DNA of 49,754 nucleotides. It comes from an uncultured Clostridia bacterium (lineage in GTDB: Bacteria; Bacillota; Clostridia; RGIG7378). The position numbers were made by a program, and so were the translations under genes. Below the pieces are notes generated by a model that was not told the origin of the DNA, searched no databases, and saw nothing but the letters and a program-made list of their open reading frames with translations. Positions 3,640-35,609 of this stretch are shown piece by piece (position 1 is the stretch's first letter; each line of letters begins with the position of its first letter). The stretch covers positions 1-49,754 of the forward strand of contig CAZCOE010000066.1 in assembly GCA_964500525.1 (NCBI GenBank), read 5' to 3'.

Positions 3640-5284
3640 GACAGCTCTGCAGCCTTTCCTTAACCATATCTGCCCCCATAATCTGCATACATGAATACAA
3701 ATCAGGGGAGTTCTGCCTGCCGCATATTGCAACTCTGAGCACCATAGTGGTGTCTCCGGGATTGCCTCTGAACTGATCCGGGGCGGCCTTGTACTCCTTG
3801 GTAGATGTGGCGAATCCAATTTCACCGGAGTATTTGCATATTGTGCCGAACCACTGCTGCATATCCTCTGCAGGATTATATATTGATCCGTAGTCCTTGA
3901 GAATACGCTGCACATCCTCTTCCGCAATGTGCTGAGGCATAGTGTAGTCCGGATTAAAGAACTGAGGATAGAAGAAGCTCATGTAGTCCTTGACCTCGCT
4001 CCACAGGGCCAGGTCCTTGCGAGGCTTTTTCCCGCCGCGGCCAATAGCCAATATTGCCTTGGCATATTCCGGATCTGCAGTCATAGCATTGTACAGCTCC
4101 GTATCGAACTCCCGGGCCCAATCGGTTACAGCCTGATATACCTGCTCCGCCGACATTCTGGCTATTACATTTTTGCTCACATCCCTGAACTTGTCCATAT
4201 CGAAGAGGGTTCCGGATACGCTCATTTTCTTAAGCGAGAAGGGAAAGTCCTCCAGGGGTGCCTCGGGATTTGCCATGCGCCAGTCCTCAAAGTTGGAGTT
4301 GATAACAGTCATCAGATATTCCTTAACAGACTCCGGAGGATATCCCTCTGTCCTGTAGTAGTCCAGGGACGCCTCAGGGTCCTTGCGCTTGGACAGCTTG
4401 CGCTTTTTGTCGCCGTCCACCTTCATCATATGGGAGGTATGGGCAAACTTGGGCATCTTGAATCCCAGGGCGCCGAACAGCTGAATATGCCAGCTGAGGG
4501 TAGACAGCCACTCTTCGCCTCGGACCACAACCGATGTGCCCATCAGGTGGTCGTCTACCACATGGGCAAAGTGATATGTGGGAATTCCATCGGACTTGAG
4601 CAATACAAAGTCCTGATTGTTCTCAGGAACAGTAATTTTGCCTTTAATCATATCGTCAATGCTGACGGTTTTGTCCGGATTCCCCTGGGAGCGGAATCTG
4701 ACTACAAAGGGCTTGCCCTCTGCAATGAGCTGAGCTACCCGGTCCACATCCATATCTCTGTGGACTGCATATTCTCCATAATATCCCGGATTGTCATGTC
4801 TCTGCTCCTGGAGTTTGCGCATCTGCTCCAGGTCCTCTTCAGTGCAGAAGCAGGGGTATGCCTTGCCCTCCAACACCAATTTCTTGGCGTAGGCCTGGTA
4901 AATTGCCGCCCGCTGTCTCTGATAGTATGGGCCGTATTCGCCTATCTCTCCCTGGGCGGTGACGCCCTCGTCGATATGGAGTCCATACTGGGCAAACACC
5001 TTGGTGATGAGTTCCACTGCTCCCGGCACCTGCCTCTTAAGGTCGGTGTCCTCGATGCGCAGAATGAATTTGCCGCCGCTCTGGTGAGCCAGCCTCTCGT
5101 CCACTATGGCGCCGTACAGGTTTCCCAGATGCATAAAGCCGGTGGGGCTGGGGGCCATACGGGTAATCTTGGCTCCCTGGGCCAGATTGCGAGGTGGAAA
5201 TATTGTCTCATACTCCTCCGGTGTCTTCAGCTCCTGAGGAAACATTAATGCCGCTAAACGCTGATAATCCATTTTCTTCTCCAA
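3623..5284 (-). CDS. gltX: glutamate--tRNA ligase (long clostridial-type GluRS)
   Basis: 553 aa. RMAPSPTGFMHLGN (class I HIGH motif in the GluRS context PSPTG), ILRIEDTD, KLSKRK (KMSKS). Confidence 0.85.
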   Translation of the reverse strand: MEKKMDYQRLAALMFPQELKTPEEYETIFPPRNLAQGAKITRMAPSPTGFMHLGNLYGAIVDERLAHQSGGKFILRIEDTDLKRQVPGAVELITKVFAQYGLHIDEGVTAQGEIGEYGPYYQRQRAAIYQAYAKKLVLEGKAYPCFCTEEDLEQMRKLQEQRHDNPGYYGEYAVHRDMDVDRVAQLIAEGKPFVVRFRSQGNPDKTVSIDDMIKGKITVPENNQDFVLLKSDGIPTYHFAHVVDDHLMGTSVVVRGEEWLSTLSWHIQLFGALGFKMPKFAHTSHMMKVDGDKKRKLSKRKDPEASLDYYRTEGYPPESVKEYLMTVINSNFEDWRMANPEAPLEDFPFSLKKMSVSGTLFDMDKFRDVSKNVIARMSAEQVYQAVTDWAREFDTELYNAMTADPEYAKAILAIGRGGKKPRKDLALWSEVKDYMSFFYPQFFNPDYTMPQHIAEEDVQRILKDYGSIYNPAEDMQQWFGTICKYSGEIGFATSTKEYKAAPDQFRGNPGDTTMVLRVAICGRQNSPDLYSCMQIMGADMVKERLQSCLNSMK

Positions 5285-8960: not shown

Positions 8961-9926
8961 ATGGTAAATATTGGTGTTGATCTTGGCGGAACCAACATTG
9001 CCGCCGGTGTAGTGGATTTCAGCAACAGAATAATATGTAAGACGTCTATTCCCACCAATGCATCAATAGGCGCAGATGGTATTACCCGGGATATAGCAGG
9101 GTTGATTCAGTCCCTTATAGACAAGACCGGCCTTTCGGTGGACGACATCGCCACTGTAGGCGTCGCGGTTCCCGGCACAGCAGACCCTCTGGCCGGTGAG
9201 GTGGTATATACCGCCAACCTGCCCTTCCTACACTATGACATATCAGCTGAGCTGCGGAAATACATTCCCCTTAACAACATTTTGACAGAAAACGACGCCA
9301 ACGCAGCGGCACTGGCTGAGGCTATAGCCGGATCTGCCAAAGGCACCAGGGACTCTGTTATGATAACACTGGGCACCGGAGTAGGAGGAGGCATCATTAT
9401 CGACGGCAAAATTCTCCACGGCTGCAACTTCTCAGCCGGGGAGGTGGGGCACATAGTCATTTGCCATGGAGACCGGCTGTGTTCCTGCGGCCGCACAGGC
9501 TGTTGGGAAGCATATGCCTCTGCCACCGGGTTGATTCTGACTACCAAGGAGTACATGCAGAGCAACATCCGATCCTCTCTATGGGACCTGGTAGACAGAG
9601 ACCTGTCCAGAGTAGATGGCCGCACCGCCTGGATTGGAGCCCAGCAGGGAGATCCCACCGCATTGGCAGTCATCCGGGAGTATATAGACCAGCTGGCATC
9701 GGGAATAGTTTCCATTATCAACATCTTCCAGCCTGAGGTTCTCTCCATAGGCGGAGGCATCAGCGGACAGGGAGACAACCTGCTGATTCCCCTCAGAGAA
9801 ATTGTGTACAAATACCAATATGCCCGTCACTGCACTAACCAGACTAAACTATGTATTGCCTCTATGGGCAACGACGCAGGAATTGTGGGCGCTGCCGCCC
9901 TGGGTATGCAGAGCACTGTTAAGTAG
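8961..9926 (+). CDS. ROK-family glucokinase
   Basis: 321 aa. IGVDLGGTNIAAG, GEVGH, and the Zn motif CSCGRTGCWEAYAS. AGGAGG RBS 7 nt upstream. Confidence 0.85.
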   Translation: MVNIGVDLGGTNIAAGVVDFSNRIICKTSIPTNASIGADGITRDIAGLIQSLIDKTGLSVDDIATVGVAVPGTADPLAGEVVYTANLPFLHYDISAELRKYIPLNNILTENDANAAALAEAIAGSAKGTRDSVMITLGTGVGGGIIIDGKILHGCNFSAGEVGHIVICHGDRLCSCGRTGCWEAYASATGLILTTKEYMQSNIRSSLWDLVDRDLSRVDGRTAWIGAQQGDPTALAVIREYIDQLASGIVSIINIFQPEVLSIGGGISGQGDNLLIPLREIVYKYQYARHCTNQTKLCIASMGNDAGIVGAAALGMQSTVK

Positions 9927-9940
9927 AGGGCCTGGCGAAT

Positions 9941-10579
9941 ATGAAGTTAGAGATCTTCCCTCCCCGAATCAAGGCAATTGAAGACTGGTACCAATCCCAT
10001 GACGAAGACCGGCGCCTGGCTATCTGTGATTGGATCTCCACAGCAAACTGTATGATCGGTGCAGTTGCCCTGGGCCTGTTCCTGATGATGTTCATCATAA
10101 TCCATTCCGTAATTCCATCCGGCTCCATGATAGCTACCATCAATATTGGGGACCACGTTATCGGCAATCGTCTGGCATATACCTTCTCTGAGCCCAAGAG
10201 AGGCGACGTTATCATCTTCTATGCTCCGGATGCCAAGGCCTCCGGTTCCGATCTCATCTACATCAAAAGGCTTATCGGCCTGCCTGGGGAGACCATCGAT
10301 ATTACCGACGGCGTGATTACAGTCACCACTGGGGATGGGGAGGTATTTGTTCTGGAAGAGGACTACCTGGGCTCAATAGACGATAACAGCTATGGCAGAT
10401 TTGAGGTTCCTCAGGATCATTATTTCTTCCTGGGTGATAACCGCAAATCCTCCCATGACGCCCGGAAGTGGTCCAACAGCTATGTGCCTCGGGAGGACCT
10501 GATTGCCAAGGCCGTGGTCAAAATATACCCTAAGCTGGAGCTGTTCCATTCTCCGGCATATAACCTTACTGAAAAATAG
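9941..10579 (+). CDS. lepB: signal peptidase I
   Basis: 212 aa. IPSGSM (Ser box), YIKRLIGLPGE (Lys box), FFLGDNRKSSHDAR. Confidence 0.92.
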   Translation: MKLEIFPPRIKAIEDWYQSHDEDRRLAICDWISTANCMIGAVALGLFLMMFIIIHSVIPSGSMIATINIGDHVIGNRLAYTFSEPKRGDVIIFYAPDAKASGSDLIYIKRLIGLPGETIDITDGVITVTTGDGEVFVLEEDYLGSIDDNSYGRFEVPQDHYFFLGDNRKSSHDARKWSNSYVPREDLIAKAVVKIYPKLELFHSPAYNLTEK

Positions 10580-10698
10580 CATTTGAGGAAATGACAATTT
10601 TCGACTAATATAAACAAAACATAAACTTTTTTTGCAAACTACTACCAAACACGGCCTTTATATGCTATTATGTCAAAAAAACAAGGAGTTTATATACT

Positions 10699-11034
10699 AT
10701 GGACAAGCAAAAAATTGATTTATACTTAACCACTAATGCAAAGTACTTTGAGCCCTCTGCTATTCCGATTCTCAGAGCCAAGTTGGAGAATGCCAGCGAC
10801 GAGACACTCCTGACCCTGCAGGCATGTGAACTGAAGGATCCTACAGTGATGTTGCTGATTTCTATCTTTTTAGGTGGACTTGGTATTGACAGATTCATGT
10901 TGGGCGATACCGGTATGGGAGTTCTCAAGCTTTTGACCGGCGGCTGCTGCGGTATCTTGGCAGTTATCGACTGGTTTACTATCAGCAAGAAGACCAAGCA
11001 GAAGAACTTCTCCACTATTTCAATGATTCTTTAA
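10699..11034 (+). CDS. TM2 domain-containing membrane protein
   Basis: 111 aa. FLGGLGIDRFMLGDTGMGVLKLLT is the TM2 pattern. AAGGAG RBS. Confidence 0.8.
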   Translation: MDKQKIDLYLTTNAKYFEPSAIPILRAKLENASDETLLTLQACELKDPTVMLLISIFLGGLGIDRFMLGDTGMGVLKLLTGGCCGILAVIDWFTISKKTKQKNFSTISMIL

Positions 11035-11041
11035 TACTTTA

Positions 11042-11395
11042 GTGAAGAGAAACATTCTCATAGTTTTAATTGTTATTGGACTTGCTCTCACATTGAGTTT
11101 TCTTAATGTGAGAACATGTCCAATTTTTGTCTTATTTAAAATTCCCTGCCCCGGCTGCGGGATGACCAGGGCGGTATCATTGATTGTAAAGGGGCAAATA
11201 GCAGCCAGCTTGAGATATAGCGTTTTGCCCATTCCCCTATTGCTGGCTATTATAGCCTACGCAGTCTTCTACTTTATCAACAAGGACTTGCTGGATCGAT
11301 TAGTCAAAAAATACGATAAAGTAATAATTGCTTTCAGTGTAATAATCGCTGCTGCAGTCTGGATAATCAATATTAATAATCCACTTCTATATTAA
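11042..11395 (+). CDS. DUF2752-type membrane protein
   Basis: 117 aa with a GTG start. The CPGCGMTRA motif is followed by TM helices. It is often paired with TM2 genes. Confidence 0.7.
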   Translation: MKRNILIVLIVIGLALTLSFLNVRTCPIFVLFKIPCPGCGMTRAVSLIVKGQIAASLRYSVLPIPLLLAIIAYAVFYFINKDLLDRLVKKYDKVIIAFSVIIAAAVWIININNPLLY

Positions 11396-29074: not shown

Positions 29075-29935
29075 TCAAATCTCTGCCAGGATCCTATCCA
29101 GTACAGCCTGAATATCGGCCTTGTCAGCTGCATCTCCCAGTACGCGCAATTCGTAAAACACATTATCCTCCACCCAATAGGCAGTAGGGTCATAAAAGTC
29201 GCCTTGGTAGTAGCCATTGTTGTTGGACCCATTGGTGGTAACAATCAATACGGAGGTGCCGGATTTTGTAGTTGCTGTGGCCTGTTCGTAGGTGGCATAC
29301 CCATTATAAACGCAGCCCGTGGTATATGTTCCGGCTTTTGCAGCAAGAGTCGCCGTCAGAGTAATCCTTGCATTATCGGTACTGTATCCGGCTGTGGCAC
29401 TTATTTCCCTGGGTTTTCTCTCTTCATTTGCAGCGTTGACTGTGACCTGAATGTGCTTTATAGGCCTATCCGGATCAGCGCTCTCCATTCCAATATGTCC
29501 GGTTTTGTTGAGCCAGCTGAGGGACTCCAGAGGATTATTCACAGTAACGCCTATTCCCTCCTCACATTCGTCCCAGGTGTCGGATTCGAAATATACGATT
29601 CCCCAAATACGACTTGACAGGGTTCTCTCTTCCCAGGTCATACTGTCATATTTGTTCCATTCCTGGGTGAGTATTTCAGTAGGCGTTTGGCCCAAATGGG
29701 ATAGGTCCGTGCCCACCAGTTCTGTTCCCACTCGATAGGAGGATTCCTTATTGTCCGTTTTTTTCTCTATTACTTCCACACGGGAATTGGTCAATTGGCC
29801 ATCGGGAGTCCCGGTTAGATCGGATGTCTTATCCTCTGCACACCCGGCGAAAATCAACGCAAGCACCAGGCAAAGGGCCAATGCGGCTATTGTTCTGATA
29901 GTAGGTTGGGTAGATACTGGGGTCTTTGTCTTCAT
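29075..29935 (-). CDS. putative lipoprotein of unknown function
   Basis: 286 aa. Signal peptide ending in the lipobox IFAGC. No catalytic motif recognised. Confidence 0.7.
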   Translation of the reverse strand: MKTKTPVSTQPTIRTIAALALCLVLALIFAGCAEDKTSDLTGTPDGQLTNSRVEVIEKKTDNKESSYRVGTELVGTDLSHLGQTPTEILTQEWNKYDSMTWEERTLSSRIWGIVYFESDTWDECEEGIGVTVNNPLESLSWLNKTGHIGMESADPDRPIKHIQVTVNAANEERKPREISATAGYSTDNARITLTATLAAKAGTYTTGCVYNGYATYEQATATTKSGTSVLIVTTNGSNNNGYYQGDFYDPTAYWVEDNVFYELRVLGDAADKADIQAVLDRILAEI

Positions 29936-30157
29936 GGTATTACTCCTTTCCGGCGAGACTCAATCAATTCTGCTTTAGCCATTTGTCTCGCGGCTCGCTG
30001 CCTTGATTCCACAATCTATTCGTATTATTGCCTACTTCGCCTCAAATGGCAATATGCCTTCAAGATACGCACGCAAACTTTTCAAAAAGCGTGTCAAACA
30101 CGACTATTACAAGCTGTATGCCTACGCTTGAGTGGTACCTGGCAATAGCCTTCTTTC

Positions 30158-30250
30158 TTCCGATTTTGGAATCAATACCTTGAATTTTAAATTTTTTTCC
30201 GAATTCGGAATTTTTATAGTTATTTTGTGTATCATATGCTATAATCGGAA
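30158..30250 (+). promoter_or_regulatory. promoter region of the ATPase gene with TTCCGA/TCGGAA palindromes
   Basis: TTCCGATTTTGGAA (30158-30171), a perfect palindrome TTCCGAATTCGGAA (30197-30210), and a TCGGAA half-site (30245-30250) overlapping an extended -10 TGcTATAAT (30237-30245). Confidence 0.45.
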
Positions 30251-30274
30251 TACTATTTGATGGAGGTAATCACC

Positions 30275-31495
30275 TTGGTTGAGAGAAAAGAATACCTAGA
30301 TTGTTTGATTCAATGGAAGGATGAGCAGGTCATCAAAGTGGTCACCGGTATCAGGCGGTGCGGTAAATCAACCCTGCTTCTTCAATATCAGGCGTGGCTT
30401 AAGGCAAACGGCATCTCAGATGAGCAGATCGTTTCCATTAATTTTGAAGAGCTGGAATATGAGGAGCTGCAGGACTATCGCAAGCTGTATGCCTACATCA
30501 GGGATCATCTGTGCCAGGGGACAAAGAACTACATTTTCCTGGATGAGATTCAGAAGGTTCCATCCTTTGAGAAGGTGGTAGACAGTCTGTATGTCAAGCC
30601 GGATATGGACATCTATATCACCGGTTCCAATGCCTATATGCTTTCCGGAGATCTTGCGACACTATTGACCGGGCGCTATGTGGAAATAAAAATGCTGCCC
30701 CTGTCCTTCAAGGAATTTCTGAAAATCACCGGTATGGACCCGGATCGGGGTCTTCCGGAATATATGCATGACGGAGGACTTCCATATATTGCCAAAATGG
30801 ATCGAACCCCGGAAAAGGTGGAAACCTACTTAGAGGGTATCTACAATACCGTTATCGTAAAGGACATGGTGGATCGTCAGGCCAGAAAGGAAACCAATTC
30901 GGATAAAAGAAGAATTACGGATATCCTCCTGCTGAAGACCATAGCTAAATACCTAGCCAGTGTGGTGGGAAATCCGGTCTCCATCAAATCAATTGCCGAC
31001 TATCTGACCTCAAACGGAAGAAAAGTCTCGCCTAACACGGTGAGCGATTATGTGGAGGCTCTCACAGAATCATTTATCTTCTATTCTGCAGAGCGTTTTG
31101 ACATTGTGGGTAAGCAGCTCTTGAAATCGAACCGAAAGCTGTATATTGTAGACCTTGGCTTACGAAACCATATCCTGCCCCGCAGTCAATACGATTTGGG
31201 ATTTTCCCTGGAGAACATTGTCTATTTTGAGCTTCTTCGCCGAGGCTATCGTGTTATGATTGGAAAGGTCGGCAATACGGAAGTAGACTTCGTTGCTGAA
31301 AAGCAGGGAATCCATACCTATTTCCAGGTTACAGCTGATATGACTGCGAAGGACACCTTCCACCGGGAGATGAAGCCACTGACAAGAATCCGGGACAACT
31401 ACGAAAAAATCGTTTTGACCGCAGATCGACTCACTGCAGGAGACTACAACGGCATCCGGGTCAAAAACATATCCGACTGGTTGCTGGGGGAATAA
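30275..31495 (+). CDS. AAA-family ATPase with a DUF4143-type C-terminal domain
   Basis: Walker A GIRRCGKSTLL, Walker B IFLDEIQ, and a C-terminal nuclease-fold-like region typical of AAA_14/DUF4143 proteins. Preferred start is TTG 30275 (MVERKEYLDCL) with GGAGG 8 nt upstream. The ORF track starts at 30257 and there is an ATG at 30260. Confidence 0.8.
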   Translation: MVERKEYLDCLIQWKDEQVIKVVTGIRRCGKSTLLLQYQAWLKANGISDEQIVSINFEELEYEELQDYRKLYAYIRDHLCQGTKNYIFLDEIQKVPSFEKVVDSLYVKPDMDIYITGSNAYMLSGDLATLLTGRYVEIKMLPLSFKEFLKITGMDPDRGLPEYMHDGGLPYIAKMDRTPEKVETYLEGIYNTVIVKDMVDRQARKETNSDKRRITDILLLKTIAKYLASVVGNPVSIKSIADYLTSNGRKVSPNTVSDYVEALTESFIFYSAERFDIVGKQLLKSNRKLYIVDLGLRNHILPRSQYDLGFSLENIVYFELLRRGYRVMIGKVGNTEVDFVAEKQGIHTYFQVTADMTAKDTFHREMKPLTRIRDNYEKIVLTADRLTAGDYNGIRVKNISDWLLGE

Positions 31496-31504
31496 AATCA
31501 CATC

Positions 31505-31535
31505 CCCAGCGTTATACATTCAAAACAACAGCGCC
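31505..31535. repeat. left copy of a 31-bp direct repeat (duplicate of the thuA-like 3' end)
   Basis: CCCAGCgTTATACATTCAAAACAACAGCGCC. It matches 33143-33173 at 30 of 31 positions. Confidence 0.9.
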
Positions 31536-31552
31536 ATTGCGAATCCGAGCCT

Positions 31553-31620
31553 CCCAGTGAAAAGTGAAAAGTTCTGGACCCTACGCTCCCATGGTCGATC
31601 ATAGGAACGTGGCAACCACT
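31553..31620. repeat. one full (+) unit and one truncated (-) unit of the modular repeat, joined head-to-head at TCGA
   Basis: CCCAGTGAAAAGTGAAAAGTTCTGGACCCTACGCTCCCATGGTCGA is followed by TCATAGGAACGTGG, which resembles the start of the minus-orientation unit at 28839. Confidence 0.75.
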
Positions 31621-31734
31621 CAGCACTTACTTCAGTACTTTCAGCACTTATTGTACTGAAAACATCTTGACAATTTCGCTCTTTAATTTTTGAATATAGT
31701 AACTTATTTGGAGGATACTCGTATCCTTAGAATG

Positions 31735-31775
31735 CCCCGTCAAGTGTTGGTAGCACTTGGCGGGGTTTATTCTTT
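31735..31775 (+). terminator. strong plus-strand rho-independent terminator
   Basis: CCCCGTCAAGTG (31735-31746) pairs with CACTTGGCGGGG (31754-31765): 12 bp including one G-U pair, with a 7-nt loop. It is followed by TTTATTCTTT. There is no U-tract in the minus orientation. Confidence 0.7.
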
Positions 31776-31790
31776 GCTCTGAAATTTGCT

Positions 31791-32303
31791 TCAATCTTCT
31801 TGAATATAGGTGAACTGTACATTTCGATCTGCCGCAGATACTGCAACTACTGTTCTTTCATCTGGTGAGAGAAGATAGAGGATATCTTCATGCATTTTTA
31901 TATAATCAAAAAGCAGCAATTGAGGAAATTTCTCTAAGAAGGTGTCTGTTTCGACTTCCTCAAAGACAAAGATTCGTGTCCACCCTTCGAATGATACATT
32001 CGATAACTGACACTCTGTTCGTTGATACACCCTTAACCAATGACCACCAATACGCATTTGAGTTTCATATACTCTGTGACACTCTGTGCAATACCAATAC
32101 TCGACAGGTTCTGAGCGTTTCATGAATTTCTTTTGTAATCCTTTCAATTCATCCCAATCAGTCAGGAAGTCTGACAGCAGAATCTGAGGATTATCTGCAA
32201 GAGCAGAAAATATTTCCTGTTCATAGTAAATACATAAACTGTATGGTGATGGGCTGACTGATGTCCCCATTGTAGCACCACATTTACATAACATTCTCGA
32301 CAT
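31791..32303 (-). CDS. hypothetical protein with two Cys pairs (possible zinc ribbon)
   Basis: 170 aa. CKCG at residues 6-9 and CTEC at 73-76. Strong RBS AAAGGAGG 8 nt upstream. Low-GC gene; no family recognised. Confidence 0.6.
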   Translation of the reverse strand: MSRMLCKCGATMGTSVSPSPYSLCIYYEQEIFSALADNPQILLSDFLTDWDELKGLQKKFMKRSEPVEYWYCTECHRVYETQMRIGGHWLRVYQRTECQLSNVSFEGWTRIFVFEEVETDTFLEKFPQLLLFDYIKMHEDILYLLSPDERTVVAVSAADRNVQFTYIQED

Positions 32304-32317
32304 AGTGAAACCTCCTT

Positions 32318-32536
32318 TTAGTATTCAATCTTGGTTTTATTTGAAAACCATACCTCGATTGGCCCCTTAATCCAACCCTTTCGTCTCGCCTCTGCGATTC
32401 CTTCTTCAGCAAATGCCCTTCCACTTTCACTGTTCCTATGATTTGGTAAAAATATCGCAATCGTATCGCCATACCTGGTAAACAGGTCGATTACTTCTTC
32501 TTTGATAAATTCGTAAGTGCTGTCATCTAGTCTCAT
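32318..32536 (-). CDS. hypothetical small protein (72 aa)
   Basis: It lies 8 nt after the XRE gene and 14 nt before the 170-aa gene. No family recognised. Confidence 0.5.
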   Translation of the reverse strand: MRLDDSTYEFIKEEVIDLFTRYGDTIAIFLPNHRNSESGRAFAEEGIAEARRKGWIKGPIEVWFSNKTKIEY

Positions 32537-32544
32537 TAATTCGC

Positions 32545-32868
32545 TTATTCCTCTCCAAGGAGAATACCCATGATTTCCATCTTCTCCTCTTTTGTCATCT
32601 GCCTTACATTTCGGGCAATCAGCCTTTTTGCATGTGCAACCTCGTTTTTTGTGTCTGGCTCTGTACCGTTCATCAAAAAATCTGAAGTTGTACCTAGTGC
32701 ATCTGCAATTCTAGCCATCACACTTGCTCTTGGAATGCGATCTCCCTTAATATAATGAGATACTGCTGCCTCTGTCACCCCAGCCCTTTGTGCGAGCGTT
32801 TGTTGTTGCATGCCTTTTTTCTTCAAAAAATCGAAAGCTGTTCTCCAAATGTTACTGCCATTGTTCAT
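32545..32868 (-). CDS. XRE-family helix-turn-helix regulator
   Basis: 107 aa. KKKGMQQQTLAQRAGVTEAAVSHYIKGDRIPRASVMARIADALGTTSDFL is an HTH_3 pattern. AAGGAGG RBS. Confidence 0.85.
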   Translation of the reverse strand: MNNGSNIWRTAFDFLKKKGMQQQTLAQRAGVTEAAVSHYIKGDRIPRASVMARIADALGTTSDFLMNGTEPDTKNEVAHAKRLIARNVRQMTKEEKMEIMGILLGEE

Positions 32869-33142
32869 TCCTCCTTTAGAATAGTTGCTCTACATCCTGT
32901 TTGATGTTATAACTGTTTTTATCGTTTTATCAACCGGTGTTGTAAAGATTAATTGCAACAATGTCAAGTTTTCGTGTGAATACTAACCAATTCGATAAAA
33001 GAATACTATATCCTAGCTTTAATTATCTTTGGAGGCTAAAATTAGATATATCGATGGACGTCTTTGCCTTTGACTAATCTCTCCCTCCGCTGGGCAATTT
33101 AGATTTTCAGTTAAGGTGTTAGCTCAACAGTGTCATGTCCTT

Positions 33143-33173
33143 CCCAGCTTTATACATTCAAAACAACAGCGCC
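33143..33173. repeat. right copy of the 31-bp direct repeat, containing the genuine stop and last 7 codons of the thuA-like gene
   Basis: CCCAGCtTTATACATTCAAAACAACAGCGCC. The stop codon TAA (minus strand) is at 33150-33152. Confidence 0.9.
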
Positions 33174-33968
33174 GTCAAAGGCTAAGGTCCGTTCCACCTT
33201 CCCTGTGGCTGCCCATTCACAGCCCCGCACGAACATCTGGCGGAACTGCCGTGGAGCAAAGCTCTGCAGTGTGTTCTCCCCCAGCCCGTGTCCGGTGTAG
33301 TATGGCCAAACGTGGCCCAGCACCTGGTTATATGTGCGCCCATTCCCATACTGTCCCACAATAGCCACTGGCTCCGGACAGCCGGTGCCAGGATGGCCGT
33401 GGCGGCTGATTACATTTGGGTCGGAATACGCCGTTGCCAGCGTGGTAAAAGGCACCCCGTGAACATTCTCCATGGTACAGAACACTTCGTCCCGGGTATC
33501 GAAATCCTCCAGTCCCCGGGTAATTGGGTGATTTACATCCGTTATGGTAATATGGTGATTCCCGTAATCCCCGTGAGAAGTGGATTCCCGCCACATCAGC
33601 ATGGCCATTTTTTCCAGTTCCGGCCAAGGTTCCATGCCGGCTGCCACCCAGTAGCAGGGATGGTCCCCATGCAAAAATACGAACCCCTTTCCACCGGCAA
33701 CGGCCTCCTCCATCAGTTTCTGCTCTCCTGGAGCGTTGAAACGGTAGTTTCCGCAATTAAATATGATCCCGTCGCAGCCATCTATGGCGTTCCCGGAGAG
33801 ATACTCATCGAAGCTCACATCCCCCAGACCCGGCCCATCGCAGACCATGGTCACGTCAAAGGCGCCGGTACTGTCCAGCAGCAGTTTGTTAGCCCTGGCC
33901 ACACGGTGCACGTCGTGTCCTCCCATATGGACGTCACCAACCAAATAGTGCAGTTTTATTTTATCCAT
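33150..33968 (-). CDS. ThuA-domain protein (trehalose-utilisation-like, class I glutamine-amidotransferase fold)
   Basis: Preferred start is ATG 33968 (MDKIKLHYLVGDVHMGGHD...). The ORF-track start at 34082 would overlap the upstream gene. VNHPITRGLEDFDTRDEVF is typical of ThuA domains. Confidence 0.7.
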   Translation of the reverse strand: MDKIKLHYLVGDVHMGGHDVHRVARANKLLLDSTGAFDVTMVCDGPGLGDVSFDEYLSGNAIDGCDGIIFNCGNYRFNAPGEQKLMEEAVAGGKGFVFLHGDHPCYWVAAGMEPWPELEKMAMLMWRESTSHGDYGNHHITITDVNHPITRGLEDFDTRDEVFCTMENVHGVPFTTLATAYSDPNVISRHGHPGTGCPEPVAIVGQYGNGRTYNQVLGHVWPYYTGHGLGENTLQSFAPRQFRQMFVRGCEWAATGKVERTLAFDGAVVLNV

Positions 33969-33979
33969 AGTTATTTTCT

Positions 33980-34849
33980 TCAATATCGTATATCGTACCA
34001 CTGGTCCGGCTTGTTTCTGGCGAGCCGAGCAGCGTCGATGATTGCCAGGATTTCCAGAGTCTCCTCCTTCTGCACCGGGCACACCCCGTGTACAAAGAAA
34101 TCCATGATTGCCTTTGCCAGATTGTGGTAGAAGTTCCTATCGTCACTTTTCAGTCGCTGGCCCGTTTCGCCATCTGAAACCATGAAATTGAACTCGGCCC
34201 AGGGCTGTGGCGTCTGCATAAAGCTGGCGAGCCGTCCATCCCCGTAATCCAGAATCAGCTGAGTGACCTGGCTGCCCACGCTGAAGGCCTTCAGACGCTT
34301 GACTCCCACTCCCATCAGAGCAACAATGGGCTCCAGTTGATGTACCGCGTAGCTGTCCAGGCTGTGGGGGCCTACAGTGGAGACGAACCGGGGCCTCTCC
34401 TGATGGGTTGCCTGATAGTCCAATATATCCTGACAGTACCGCTGGGCCGAGGACGAGAAAACCGGTGTTCCATGTTCCTCAGCCAGGGCGAACAGCCTCT
34501 TCCCTGCGTTCACTGACGGTGCAAAGGTCTTATCCACGAAGACAGGTTTTCCGCTGCGTAGTGGCAGCTGGCACACTTGCTCGTGCCATGCGGAATTGTC
34601 CGCCGCGATTACCATAATGGCATCCACGTAATCCACAAGCTGTTCCATGGTTTCCGCAGGGCATATATTCCGCTGCTCACACCACTGGGTCGTAGACATG
34701 CCCCCCTCCGGCGGGACCTCATGGATGCCAAAGGCGTGGGTGACCTGGGCATCGTATCCATACCGACGGATCACATCCCGCAAAAAGTCGGGGTAATGGT
34801 CGGCGTGCCAGTTATTCAAATAGTAGTCCGCAAACCCGATTTTCAGCAT
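33980..34849 (-). CDS. Gfo/Idh/MocA-like (ThuB-like) protein lacking a canonical GxGxxG
   Basis: 289 aa. The N-terminus is MLKIGFADYYLNNWHADHYPDFL where an oxidoreductase would have IGxIGxGxI. Overall length and its position next to the ThuA-like gene also fit. Confidence 0.5.
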   Translation of the reverse strand: MLKIGFADYYLNNWHADHYPDFLRDVIRRYGYDAQVTHAFGIHEVPPEGGMSTTQWCEQRNICPAETMEQLVDYVDAIMVIAADNSAWHEQVCQLPLRSGKPVFVDKTFAPSVNAGKRLFALAEEHGTPVFSSSAQRYCQDILDYQATHQERPRFVSTVGPHSLDSYAVHQLEPIVALMGVGVKRLKAFSVGSQVTQLILDYGDGRLASFMQTPQPWAEFNFMVSDGETGQRLKSDDRNFYHNLAKAIMDFFVHGVCPVQKEETLEILAIIDAARLARNKPDQWYDIRY

Positions 34850-34871
34850 TTCAGAGTCCCCTTTCCAATAT

Positions 34872-35609
34872 TCAAGTCATATCTGCCACGTATTTTGCTG
34901 CATCTGCGTCCAGCAGGAATGTACAGTTGGGGTGCAATTGCAGCACAGAGGCCGGGATATCCTCAGTCACAGGACCCTTGAGCATTTGTCGAACTATGTC
35001 GGCCTTGTGCCCACCCTTGGCAATTAATACTATATGGCGAGCATGCATAATGGTCCGGATGCCCAGAGTAAGACCTCCCAGCTCATGGTCAGGGTCCACA
35101 CCGGTCTCCCGGCGTACCCGTTCCTCGAATACGGGATCCATGGGAGAGACCCAGGTCTCGCTGGCAAAGGGGGTTCGAGGCTGGTTGATGCCTATATGTC
35201 CATTGTATCCCAGTCCCAGCATTTGCAGGTCGATTCCGCCCCTGTCCTCCAGGGCCTGCTGGAATTCCCTGCACTCCTCTTCAAAGTTCTCCGACATGGT
35301 CTGGGGCATGATAAAGTTCTCCTCCAGAATGTTCAAAGGACGGGCAATCTGCTCAGCAATCATGGTGTAACAGCAGCCCGGGTAACTGCGGGGCAGGTTG
35401 GTCAGCTCGTCCACATTGAACAGAGTAACCCTGCTGGTGTCAAAGGGGTACTGCCTGTAGATGTCACTGACTATGGCGTGCATATTCTTGGTGGTCTGAC
35501 CGGTGGACAACCCGATAACGGAATCGGGCTTGCGAAGTATCTGCCCGATAATCTCCCAGGCGGCCATCACGTCAAACTCATGTTCGTCCTTAGCGATAAT
35601 GATGTTCAT
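34872..35609 (-). CDS. glucosamine-6-phosphate deaminase/isomerase family protein (NagB-like, divergent)
   Basis: 245 aa. GLSTGQT, NVDE, LGLGYNGHIGINQP (canonical GxGxxGHIxFNEP). Confidence 0.7.
   Translation of the reverse strand: MNIIIAKDEHEFDVMAAWEIIGQILRKPDSVIGLSTGQTTKNMHAIVSDIYRQYPFDTSRVTLFNVDELTNLPRSYPGCCYTMIAEQIARPLNILEENFIMPQTMSENFEEECREFQQALEDRGGIDLQMLGLGYNGHIGINQPRTPFASETWVSPMDPVFEERVRRETGVDPDHELGGLTLGIRTIMHARHIVLIAKGGHKADIVRQMLKGPVTEDIPASVLQLHPNCTFLLDADAAKYVADMT

Follow-up and report, generated by a model that had tools for sequence, protein, structure and literature searches.

A 1.6-kb cassette between 31-bp direct repeats at the 3' end of a thuA-like gene in an uncultured Clostridia bacterium: a probable decayed remnant of an integrative element

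Cis-mobilisable elements (CIMEs) of the ICESt1/ICESt3 family were reportedly described in Streptococcus thermophilus by Pavlovic et al. 2004 and Bellanger et al. 2011. Here, we analyzed a stretch of 49,754 nucleotides from an uncultured Clostridia bacterium (GenBank assembly GCA_964500525.1, contig CAZCOE010000066.1), referred to below as the window, in which a 1607-bp cassette (31536–33142) lies between 2 direct copies of a 31-mer at the 3' end of a thuA-like gene. The CIMEs of the ICESt1/ICESt3 family, which are integrated in the 3' end of the fda gene (reviewed in PMC5704250), resemble this locus in being short islands whose attachment (att) repeats duplicate the 3' end of a protein-coding gene, in lacking integrase and transfer genes, in seemingly deriving from a larger element by deletion, and in varying among close strains. 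The locus in the window differs from them in its host, an uncultured gut Clostridia relative of Acutalibacter, in its target (a thuA-like gene) and core sequence, and in its much smaller size of 1.6 kb, and no cognate integrative and conjugative element (ICE) or integrative mobilisable element (IME) with the same att site was found. We consider that the 1638-bp unit, comprising the cassette and one 31-mer, is probably the decayed remnant of an integrative element. This reading changes no concept, as remnants of the CIME kind are well known from the 3' ends of genes.

Other described systems resemble parts of the locus. Firmicutes IMEs with a tyrosine integrase and a Mob_Pre/MobV relaxase, represented here by the metagenome contig L038, carry homologous cargo on a low-GC island abutting chromosomal genes, as in the window, whereas genes for an integrase, an excisionase, a relaxase, or replication are lacking from the element in the window. 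Integrative mobile elements exploiting Xer (IMEX) and pdif modules, which use the host XerC/D recombinases, are likewise small pieces of recombinase-less cargo with site-like repeats of about 28–31 bp, but the repeats in the window are direct copies of a gene end and not dif-like XerC/XerD half-site pairs (dif likeness being judged by eye). The cargo itself recalls the CapH/CapP defence operons and ImmR/ImmA of ICEBs1, in that the first 2 genes of the intact cargo module of relatives match capH and capP/metalloprotease profiles and are followed by the nuclease-like DUF4417 gene. In contrast to CapH/CapP, the effectors of the module (DUF4417, p146, and p170) are uncharacterised, and the protease and nuclease are deleted in the window, so the predicted system should be unable to work there as it does in relatives.

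Direct repeats and empty sites at the thuA 3' end

The 31-mer, CCCAGC(G/T)TTATACATTCAAAACAACAGCGCC, was identified in 2 direct copies at 31505–31535 and 33143–33173, identical at 30 of 31 positions and 1638 nt apart from start to start. The single mismatch falls at position 7, and TTATACATTCAAAACAACAGCGCC forms a 24-nt exact core that is the longest exact word common to the 2 copies in the window. With up to 3 mismatches allowed, these were the only 2 matches in the 49.8-kb window, against 0 of 100 shuffled controls. No third, degenerate copy, as a tandem-accretion model would have it, was found in the window, the sequence left of the neighboring ATPase gene included, and the next-best 31-mer had 12 mismatches. 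The right, attR-like copy (33143–33173, no strand assigned, allele T7/T16) reads on the minus strand GGC GCT GTT GTT TTG AAT GTA TAA AGCTGGG, encoding G A V V L N V followed by the stop codon and 7 further nt, and thus contains the last 7 codons and the stop of the thuA-like gene. The left, attL-like copy (31505–31535, no strand assigned, allele G7/T16) is an orphan thuA 3' end lying 9 nt past the stop codon of a DUF4143 ATPase gene. An earlier note on this DNA, made from its letters alone, had described the repeat pair with its 30 matching positions and had taken the right copy for the real gene end and the left one for an orphan fragment; the repeat search with its shuffled controls bore out the former point, and the minus-strand reading the latter. 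The junction table showed that homology ends sharply at both edges of the 31-mer, which is therefore not part of a longer duplication, an alternative that the note had raised. No terminal inverted repeats joining the cassette ends were found.

We reached strain-level contigs through the members of the 90% ThuA cluster, whereas exact look-ups with the ATPase, for either of 2 start choices, and with the GFO-like protein had no match. All comparison data in this study are metagenome contigs. The empty site that the earlier note had proposed to search for, with the thuA 3' end joined directly to the sequence left of 31505, was identified in 2 of them. The first, L044 (Logan SRR15283141, 3626 nt), corresponds to window positions 35373..33143 joined to 31535..30110 through a single 31-mer, and its comparison with the flanks joined in silico gave equal length and collinearity over 3626 of 3626 nt, with 9 mismatches and no gaps. 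The second, L043 (SRR15283108), represents another allele, in which the 31-mer CCCAGCGTTATACATCCAAAACAACAGCGCC is followed directly by the ATPase flank and the ThuA C-terminus is ..LDV and not ..LNV. The empty-site contigs were 99.5–99.9% identical to the flanks of the window and collinear with them once 1638 bp was removed, so that presence or absence of the unit is a precise polymorphism. As L044 and L043 each carry a single copy, strains without the cassette have one 31-mer and not two, which excludes the case, considered in the note, of cassette-free relatives retaining both copies. The locus thus shares with CIMEs direct repeats matching at 30 of 31 positions, a corresponding single-copy attB in 2 strains, and a cassette without integration or transfer genes.

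Beyond the strain level, the ThuA relatives in the genome collection had at most 87% amino acid identity, the best being an uncultured Acutalibacter metagenome-assembled genome, and kept the GFO-like/ThuA gene pair, but the 31-mer, the cassette genes, and the ATPase gene downstream of thuA were absent from all of these species-level relatives. Past the stop codon of thuA, the next species (L003) has GGGAGGATGTGGAT, which resembles the ATPase-side flank of the window, GGGGATGTGAT, and this suggests, as far as the similarity goes, that the empty arrangement is the ancestral one. In a sister species (L046), with ThuA about 89% identical, a Phage_holin_4_1 gene and the next open reading frame (ORF) lie downstream of thuA (L046:8004-8581), and the spot downstream of thuA is therefore variable between species. 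With the cassette, the 3' end of thuA stands out as a hotspot for integration within the lineage.

The filled form was identified a second time in an independent sample, in the 1668-nt contig L002 (SRR15283116), which covers the same cassette from one repeat to the other and is 99.6% identical to the window. Of the 7 differences between the two, 3 are in the repeats, which make up 61 nt (binomial p = 0.0015). With alleles written as 31-mer positions 7/16, the filled form in the window has G/T on the left and T/T on the right, the filled form in L002 has T/T on the left and G/C on the right, and the single copies of the empty sites are T/T in L044 and G/C in L043. In each filled form, the allele on the thuA side is thus one that was also seen in an empty site, and at position 7 the 2 filled forms carry G and T in opposite order. 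More than one recombination event has likely taken place at the repeats, judging from these sequences, whether as independent integrations, as excision and re-integration, or as conversion between copies, and the allele pattern fits integration into and excision from 2 attB alleles better than a single event followed by clonal drift. The site-specific model of greatest parsimony would put the exchange in the first 6 nt (CCCAGC), on the side of the 31-mer away from thuA, and still requires one extra mutation. With such an exchange point, the right copies would be host alleles, and both of them were seen as empty sites.

Contig ends also bear on the coexistence of the 2 forms. Logan contigs are de Bruijn contigs built with k=31, and any 31-mer is present a single time per accession (PMC12424806). 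Two contigs, L001 and L045, stop exactly at the edge of the repeat, at 33143 and 33144, respectively, and both ends of L002 lie within repeat copies, which is suggestive of filled and empty paths branching within single samples. The filled and empty forms have near-identical flanks, and their samples probably come from one study, judging by neighboring accession numbers.

The cargo module and its relatives

The cassette is foreign in composition, with 39.6% G+C over its 1607 bp against 55.3% in thuA and 55.0% in the sugar operon to which thuA belongs. The local counts are 22 of 60 nt at 32101–32160 and 35 of 60 nt at 33601–33660 in thuA.

Most of the cassette is occupied by a decayed cargo module (31665..32969, minus strand), whose DNA is 78–80% identical to the module running from XRE to p170 in L035, L036, and L038 and carries an internal deletion of about 1.6 kb (blastn, tblastn). 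In relatives, the intact module (L038:5737-8427, L035:828-3522, and L049:6836-9540) encodes, in order, an XRE regulator (105 amino acids, CapH-like in PADLOC), a 185-amino-acid M78-type protease that matches phage metalloprotease and CapP profiles, a DUF4417 protein that matches the PHROG nuclease family 940, the 146-amino-acid p146, and p170. Three ORFs are left in the window. The XRE/HTH_3 regulator (32545..32868, minus strand; Pfam, PADLOC capH) is 85% identical to that of L038 and differs by a 1-nt homopolymer deletion near 32824 (T6 against T7 on the sense strand in L002 and L038). Its canonical frame (MAVTFGEQLSIF, start at 32861) closes after 12 codons, and the long ORF begins at an out-of-frame ATG too near the ribosome-binding site; the homopolymer difference may be a real frameshift or an assembly error. 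The second ORF, p72 (32318..32536, minus strand, 72 amino acids), was identified by tblastn and junction sequences as an in-frame deletion chimera, with residues 1–22 corresponding to the N-terminus of the 185-amino-acid protease and residues 23–72 to p146 positions 97–146, each half being 86% identical to the respective L038 protein. Its junction shows an ATG/GATG microhomology, and the DUF4417 gene is gone together with most of the protease and p146 genes.

The third ORF, p170 (31791..32303, minus strand, 170 amino acids), is intact and shares 71% identity with its L038 counterpart. Its family is small, with 19 protein clusters (43–71% identity), and in relatives p170 is the last gene of the module. 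Invariant motifs of the family include CxC...CxxC, PSP, and EYWYC..C.RVYE.Q...G.WLR. No match to p170 was found in Pfam, PHROG, or PADLOC, no relative was found in IMG/VR, and its confident AlphaFold2 model (pLDDT 84.7, pTM 0.80) had no fold match in the PDB at E <= 0.001. The triad of DUF4417, p146, and p170 accompanies, whole or in part, the p170 homolog in most of 25 JGI metagenome loci, with none in IMG/VR. Homologs of p170 were also identified in islets rich in toxin-antitoxin or polymorphic-toxin genes (L039–L042 and L047). In L039–L042 (e.g., L039:1491-3694), distant p170 homologs (43%) are preceded by DUF4417 and directly followed by LHH-domain polymorphic-toxin and SUKH immunity genes.

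From these comparisons, the XRE / 72-amino-acid / 170-amino-acid operon is best taken as the stump of a five-gene module in which p170 alone is intact. As a deletion stump and not a designed three-gene system, the orphan operon calls for caution against a toxin-antitoxin or defence reading. The five-gene module, which recurs among the relatives, is a candidate damage-induced defence or abortive system, undescribed as far as the libraries compared show.

The segments on either side of the module were also characterized. Just past the p170 stop, we identified a strong hairpin terminator with 15 pairs and a T-run (31734..31766, plus strand) and a second conserved hairpin, GGATACTCGTATCC, at about 31705–31735; both belong to the module, because they are conserved in L035 and L038. 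Homology to L038 and L035 ends near 31665–31682, and the gap from there to the left repeat is filled by a mosaic intergenic repeat unit (31539..~31660, plus strand; families D1/D2/I7) made of a GC hairpin box, AGTGAnn heptads, and a 29-nt core. This unit begins 3 nt from attL, is present in both the window and L002, and is without counterpart in the relatives of the module, and further copies of the mosaic repeat were confirmed within the window. The repeat family may have spread into the element once it was in place, or else this end of the element would be of host origin. At the other end, a 173-nt unmatched segment (32970..33142, no strand assigned) runs from the promoter region of the module to attR and is the candidate P-arm, if the element has one. 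It had no match in L035–L038 or in the phage and plasmid collections, the cassette DNA as a whole had none in these collections, and an Rfam scan of 29900–33400 gave sub-threshold hairpin noise only.

Origin of the cassette

The link to an integrative element comes from L038 (ENA ERZ27234646 k141_284207, 10.8 kb), which encodes an HTH repressor, a 66-amino-acid protein, a tyrosine integrase (362 amino acids; PHROG 1, E 2.5e-68), a NikA-like protein, AAA_25, and a Mob_Pre relaxase, followed by the intact module. The low-GC island of L038 runs on through the module up to chromosomal pst genes, and this gene order is the predicted architecture of an IME with distal cargo. Because the intact module follows an integrase-relaxase backbone in L038, we read the cassette in the window as a decayed IME-type element. 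Elsewhere, the module adjoins a tRNA cluster (L035 and L036), and from its distribution it would be a travelling cargo unit. In L035, from another organism, the module and a 62-amino-acid membrane ORF lie between 86-nt imperfect direct repeats (282–367 and 3678–3763; 77% identical, with a hairpin in each), and about 280 nt separate the bracketed module from the 3' end of a cluster of 7 tRNA genes (3890–4495). This arrangement may be another integration scar.

We propose that a circular element with a 31-bp attP, identical to an attB spanning the thuA stop, would have entered by site-specific recombination, with the junction on the circle predicted to read ...GTCATGTCCTT-31-mer-ATTGCGAATCC.... 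Integration would have made attL (31505–31535) and attR (33143–33173), duplicating the 31-mer and keeping thuA intact. By analogy with L038, the junctions were presumably made by a tyrosine-type site-specific recombinase, and we infer a progenitor of the L038 type, an IME with both integrase and relaxase. Recombinase and transfer genes would then have been lost, unless they were never carried, and the cargo would have eroded through the 1.6-kb in-frame deletion that created the p72 chimera and through the XRE frameshift, with the mosaic repeat of the genome now occupying the segment next to attL. For such a remnant to move, a matching integrase would have to be supplied in trans. The metagenomes alone gave a filled site, 2 empty-site alleles, and eroded cargo, and the locus offers a clean natural example of how small variable islets arise beside core operons of uncultured gut Clostridia.

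The G+C counts of the earlier note and its description of an AT-rich cassette agreed exactly with our recount, and the contents that it listed (one repeat unit, a strong terminator, and the XRE / 72-amino-acid / 170-amino-acid operon) were confirmed by repeat, hairpin, ORF, and Pfam analysis. It had also stated that no integrase lies inside or beside the cassette, and neither Pfam over 22–45 kb nor tblastn over the whole window found one; in particular, the integrase, relaxase, and replication proteins of L038 had no tblastn match in the window. Its interpretation of the repeats as attL and attR of a site-specific integration, enclosing a CIME-like element or the remnant of a larger island, is supported by the empty sites, the sharp repeat edges, the decayed cargo, and L038.

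Several observations weigh against a decayed integrative element. The attachment of the module to an IME backbone is documented once only, in L038, around which no att repeats were located, and the ends of L038 are unlike the 173-nt and 146-nt end segments and the 31-mer of the window. In L049, a 432-kb chromosomal contig, the module is present without an integrase within 9 kb or flanking repeats. No recombinase or relaxase family was identified by Pfam in the window genes checked (22–45 kb). The 31-mer shows no obvious dyad symmetry of the kind expected of core-type integrase binding sites and is bounded by a direct CAGCG pentamer, and the 4 allele configurations cannot all be explained by one crossover position with one attP allele. 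Further, with a mosaic repeat unit lying right against attL, some of the element may come from the host.

Other known classes of element were considered and rejected. A transposon, insertion sequence, or miniature inverted-repeat transposable element has terminal inverted repeats, which were absent here, and 31 bp is far above the usual target duplications of 2–15 bp. Unlike an integron cassette, the unit is bounded by direct copies of the 3' end of a gene, and the window has no integrase, although no search with an attC model was made. A prophage remnant was rejected on the absence of a match in the phage collection and of p170 in IMG/VR, with PHROGs returning generic HTH matches only. The unit is not an IME or ICE proper, as no integrase or relaxase of its own was found by Pfam, PHROG, or tblastn.

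A further question is whether, in natural gut populations, a recombinase with its gene elsewhere still inserts the recombinase-less 1.6-kb cassette at the thuA 3' end and excises it again. We regard such continued cycling as unlikely; it would fit the existence of 2 attB alleles, the swap of alleles between attL and attR, and, within single samples, the contigs that break off at the edge of the repeat. If it were true, the locus would be a minimal trans-mobilised cassette with the stump of a CapH/CapP-like-regulated module of DUF4417 nuclease, p146, and p170.

Closely related is the possibility, in our view rather improbable, that the cassette never had its own recombinase and is of a satellite type, moved in trans by the integrase of another element of like specificity or by host Xer, in which case it may still cycle. 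The cassette holds no trace of int or mob genes, pseudogene fragments included, and the module was identified in several integrase-free contexts (L049, L047, and L035/L036); the near-identical flanks of filled and empty forms, the shuffled att alleles, and the contig breaks suggesting that both forms coexist in one sample would also be expected of a satellite. Host Xer is disfavored by the 31-mer, which is not convincingly dif-like when judged by eye, and by the site pairs of pdif modules, which are inverted and not direct repeats of a gene end. A helper element is disfavored by an exact-pattern scan of JGI metagenome contigs and IMG/VR, in which the 31-mer core had 0 matches; the 31-mer is usable as a probe for integrase-bearing elements that target the thuA 3' end. 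The internal deletion and frameshift, moreover, speak of decay and not of a maintained mobile unit.

We judge it clearly improbable that no site-specific recombinase was involved, that is, that an illegitimate or homology-facilitated entry duplicated the 31 bp and that the empty sites are deletions by RecA or slippage between the repeats. Direct repeats of 24–31 bp suffice for slippage deletion, which leaves exactly one copy, and crossovers at varied points in the repeat would explain the mixed alleles, for example by converting L002 into the T/T and G/C empty alleles; the lack of obvious recombinase-type symmetry in the 31-mer is also in keeping with such an origin. What this explanation leaves unaccounted for is how a 31-bp duplication that exactly restores the gene end came about, and a duplication of this kind is characteristic of attP x attB integration into the 3' ends of genes (PMC5704250). 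Its account of the empty sites as deletions is at odds with the empty arrangement looking ancestral by its resemblance to the L003 sequence after the stop, and the relative of the cargo module joined to an integrase-relaxase backbone in L038 likewise favors an integrative element.

We find it scarcely credible that one of the forms, filled or empty, results from mis-joining at the short repeat, for, although all data are metagenome contigs and the k=31 of Logan equals the repeat length, the longest exact word shared by the copies in the window (24 nt) is below k, the filled form was found in 2 independent assemblies (the window and L002), and the empty form was found with different alleles in 2 independent samples (L044 and L043), with a de Bruijn contig being unable to cross a branching node.

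Flanking genes

The target gene belongs to the ThuA family (Pfam PF06283; 33150..33968, minus strand), is the last gene of a conserved sugar operon with synteny in L003, L004, L025, and L046, and lies outside the element. In one metatranscriptome run, a single 265-nt thuA fragment was the sole match on the region. The genes checked at 22–45 kb were housekeeping or sugar-catabolic (MreB/MreC, an ECF transporter, guaB, GH9, ROK, a NagB-like protein, an MFS transporter, GMP synthase, and others).

The left flank is a convergent AAA_14/DUF4143 ATPase gene (PADLOC PDC-S01; 30275..31495, plus strand) with a likely TTG start at 30275. It is not part of the element, because it is present in the empty-site strains. 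The ATPase matches the PADLOC candidate defence gene PDC-S01 very strongly (E 3.7e-157), and in the unrelated chromosomal contig L049 an AAA_14/DUF4143 ATPase gene (9895–11202) also directly follows the intact module. The presence of such an ATPase beside the module in both the window and L049 may be coincidence or may point to a defence-islet association.

In the GFO-like gene next to thuA, the window has C at position 34010, compared with G in all 4 other strain-level contigs (L001, L043, L044, and L045), and this C is a private substitution or an error.

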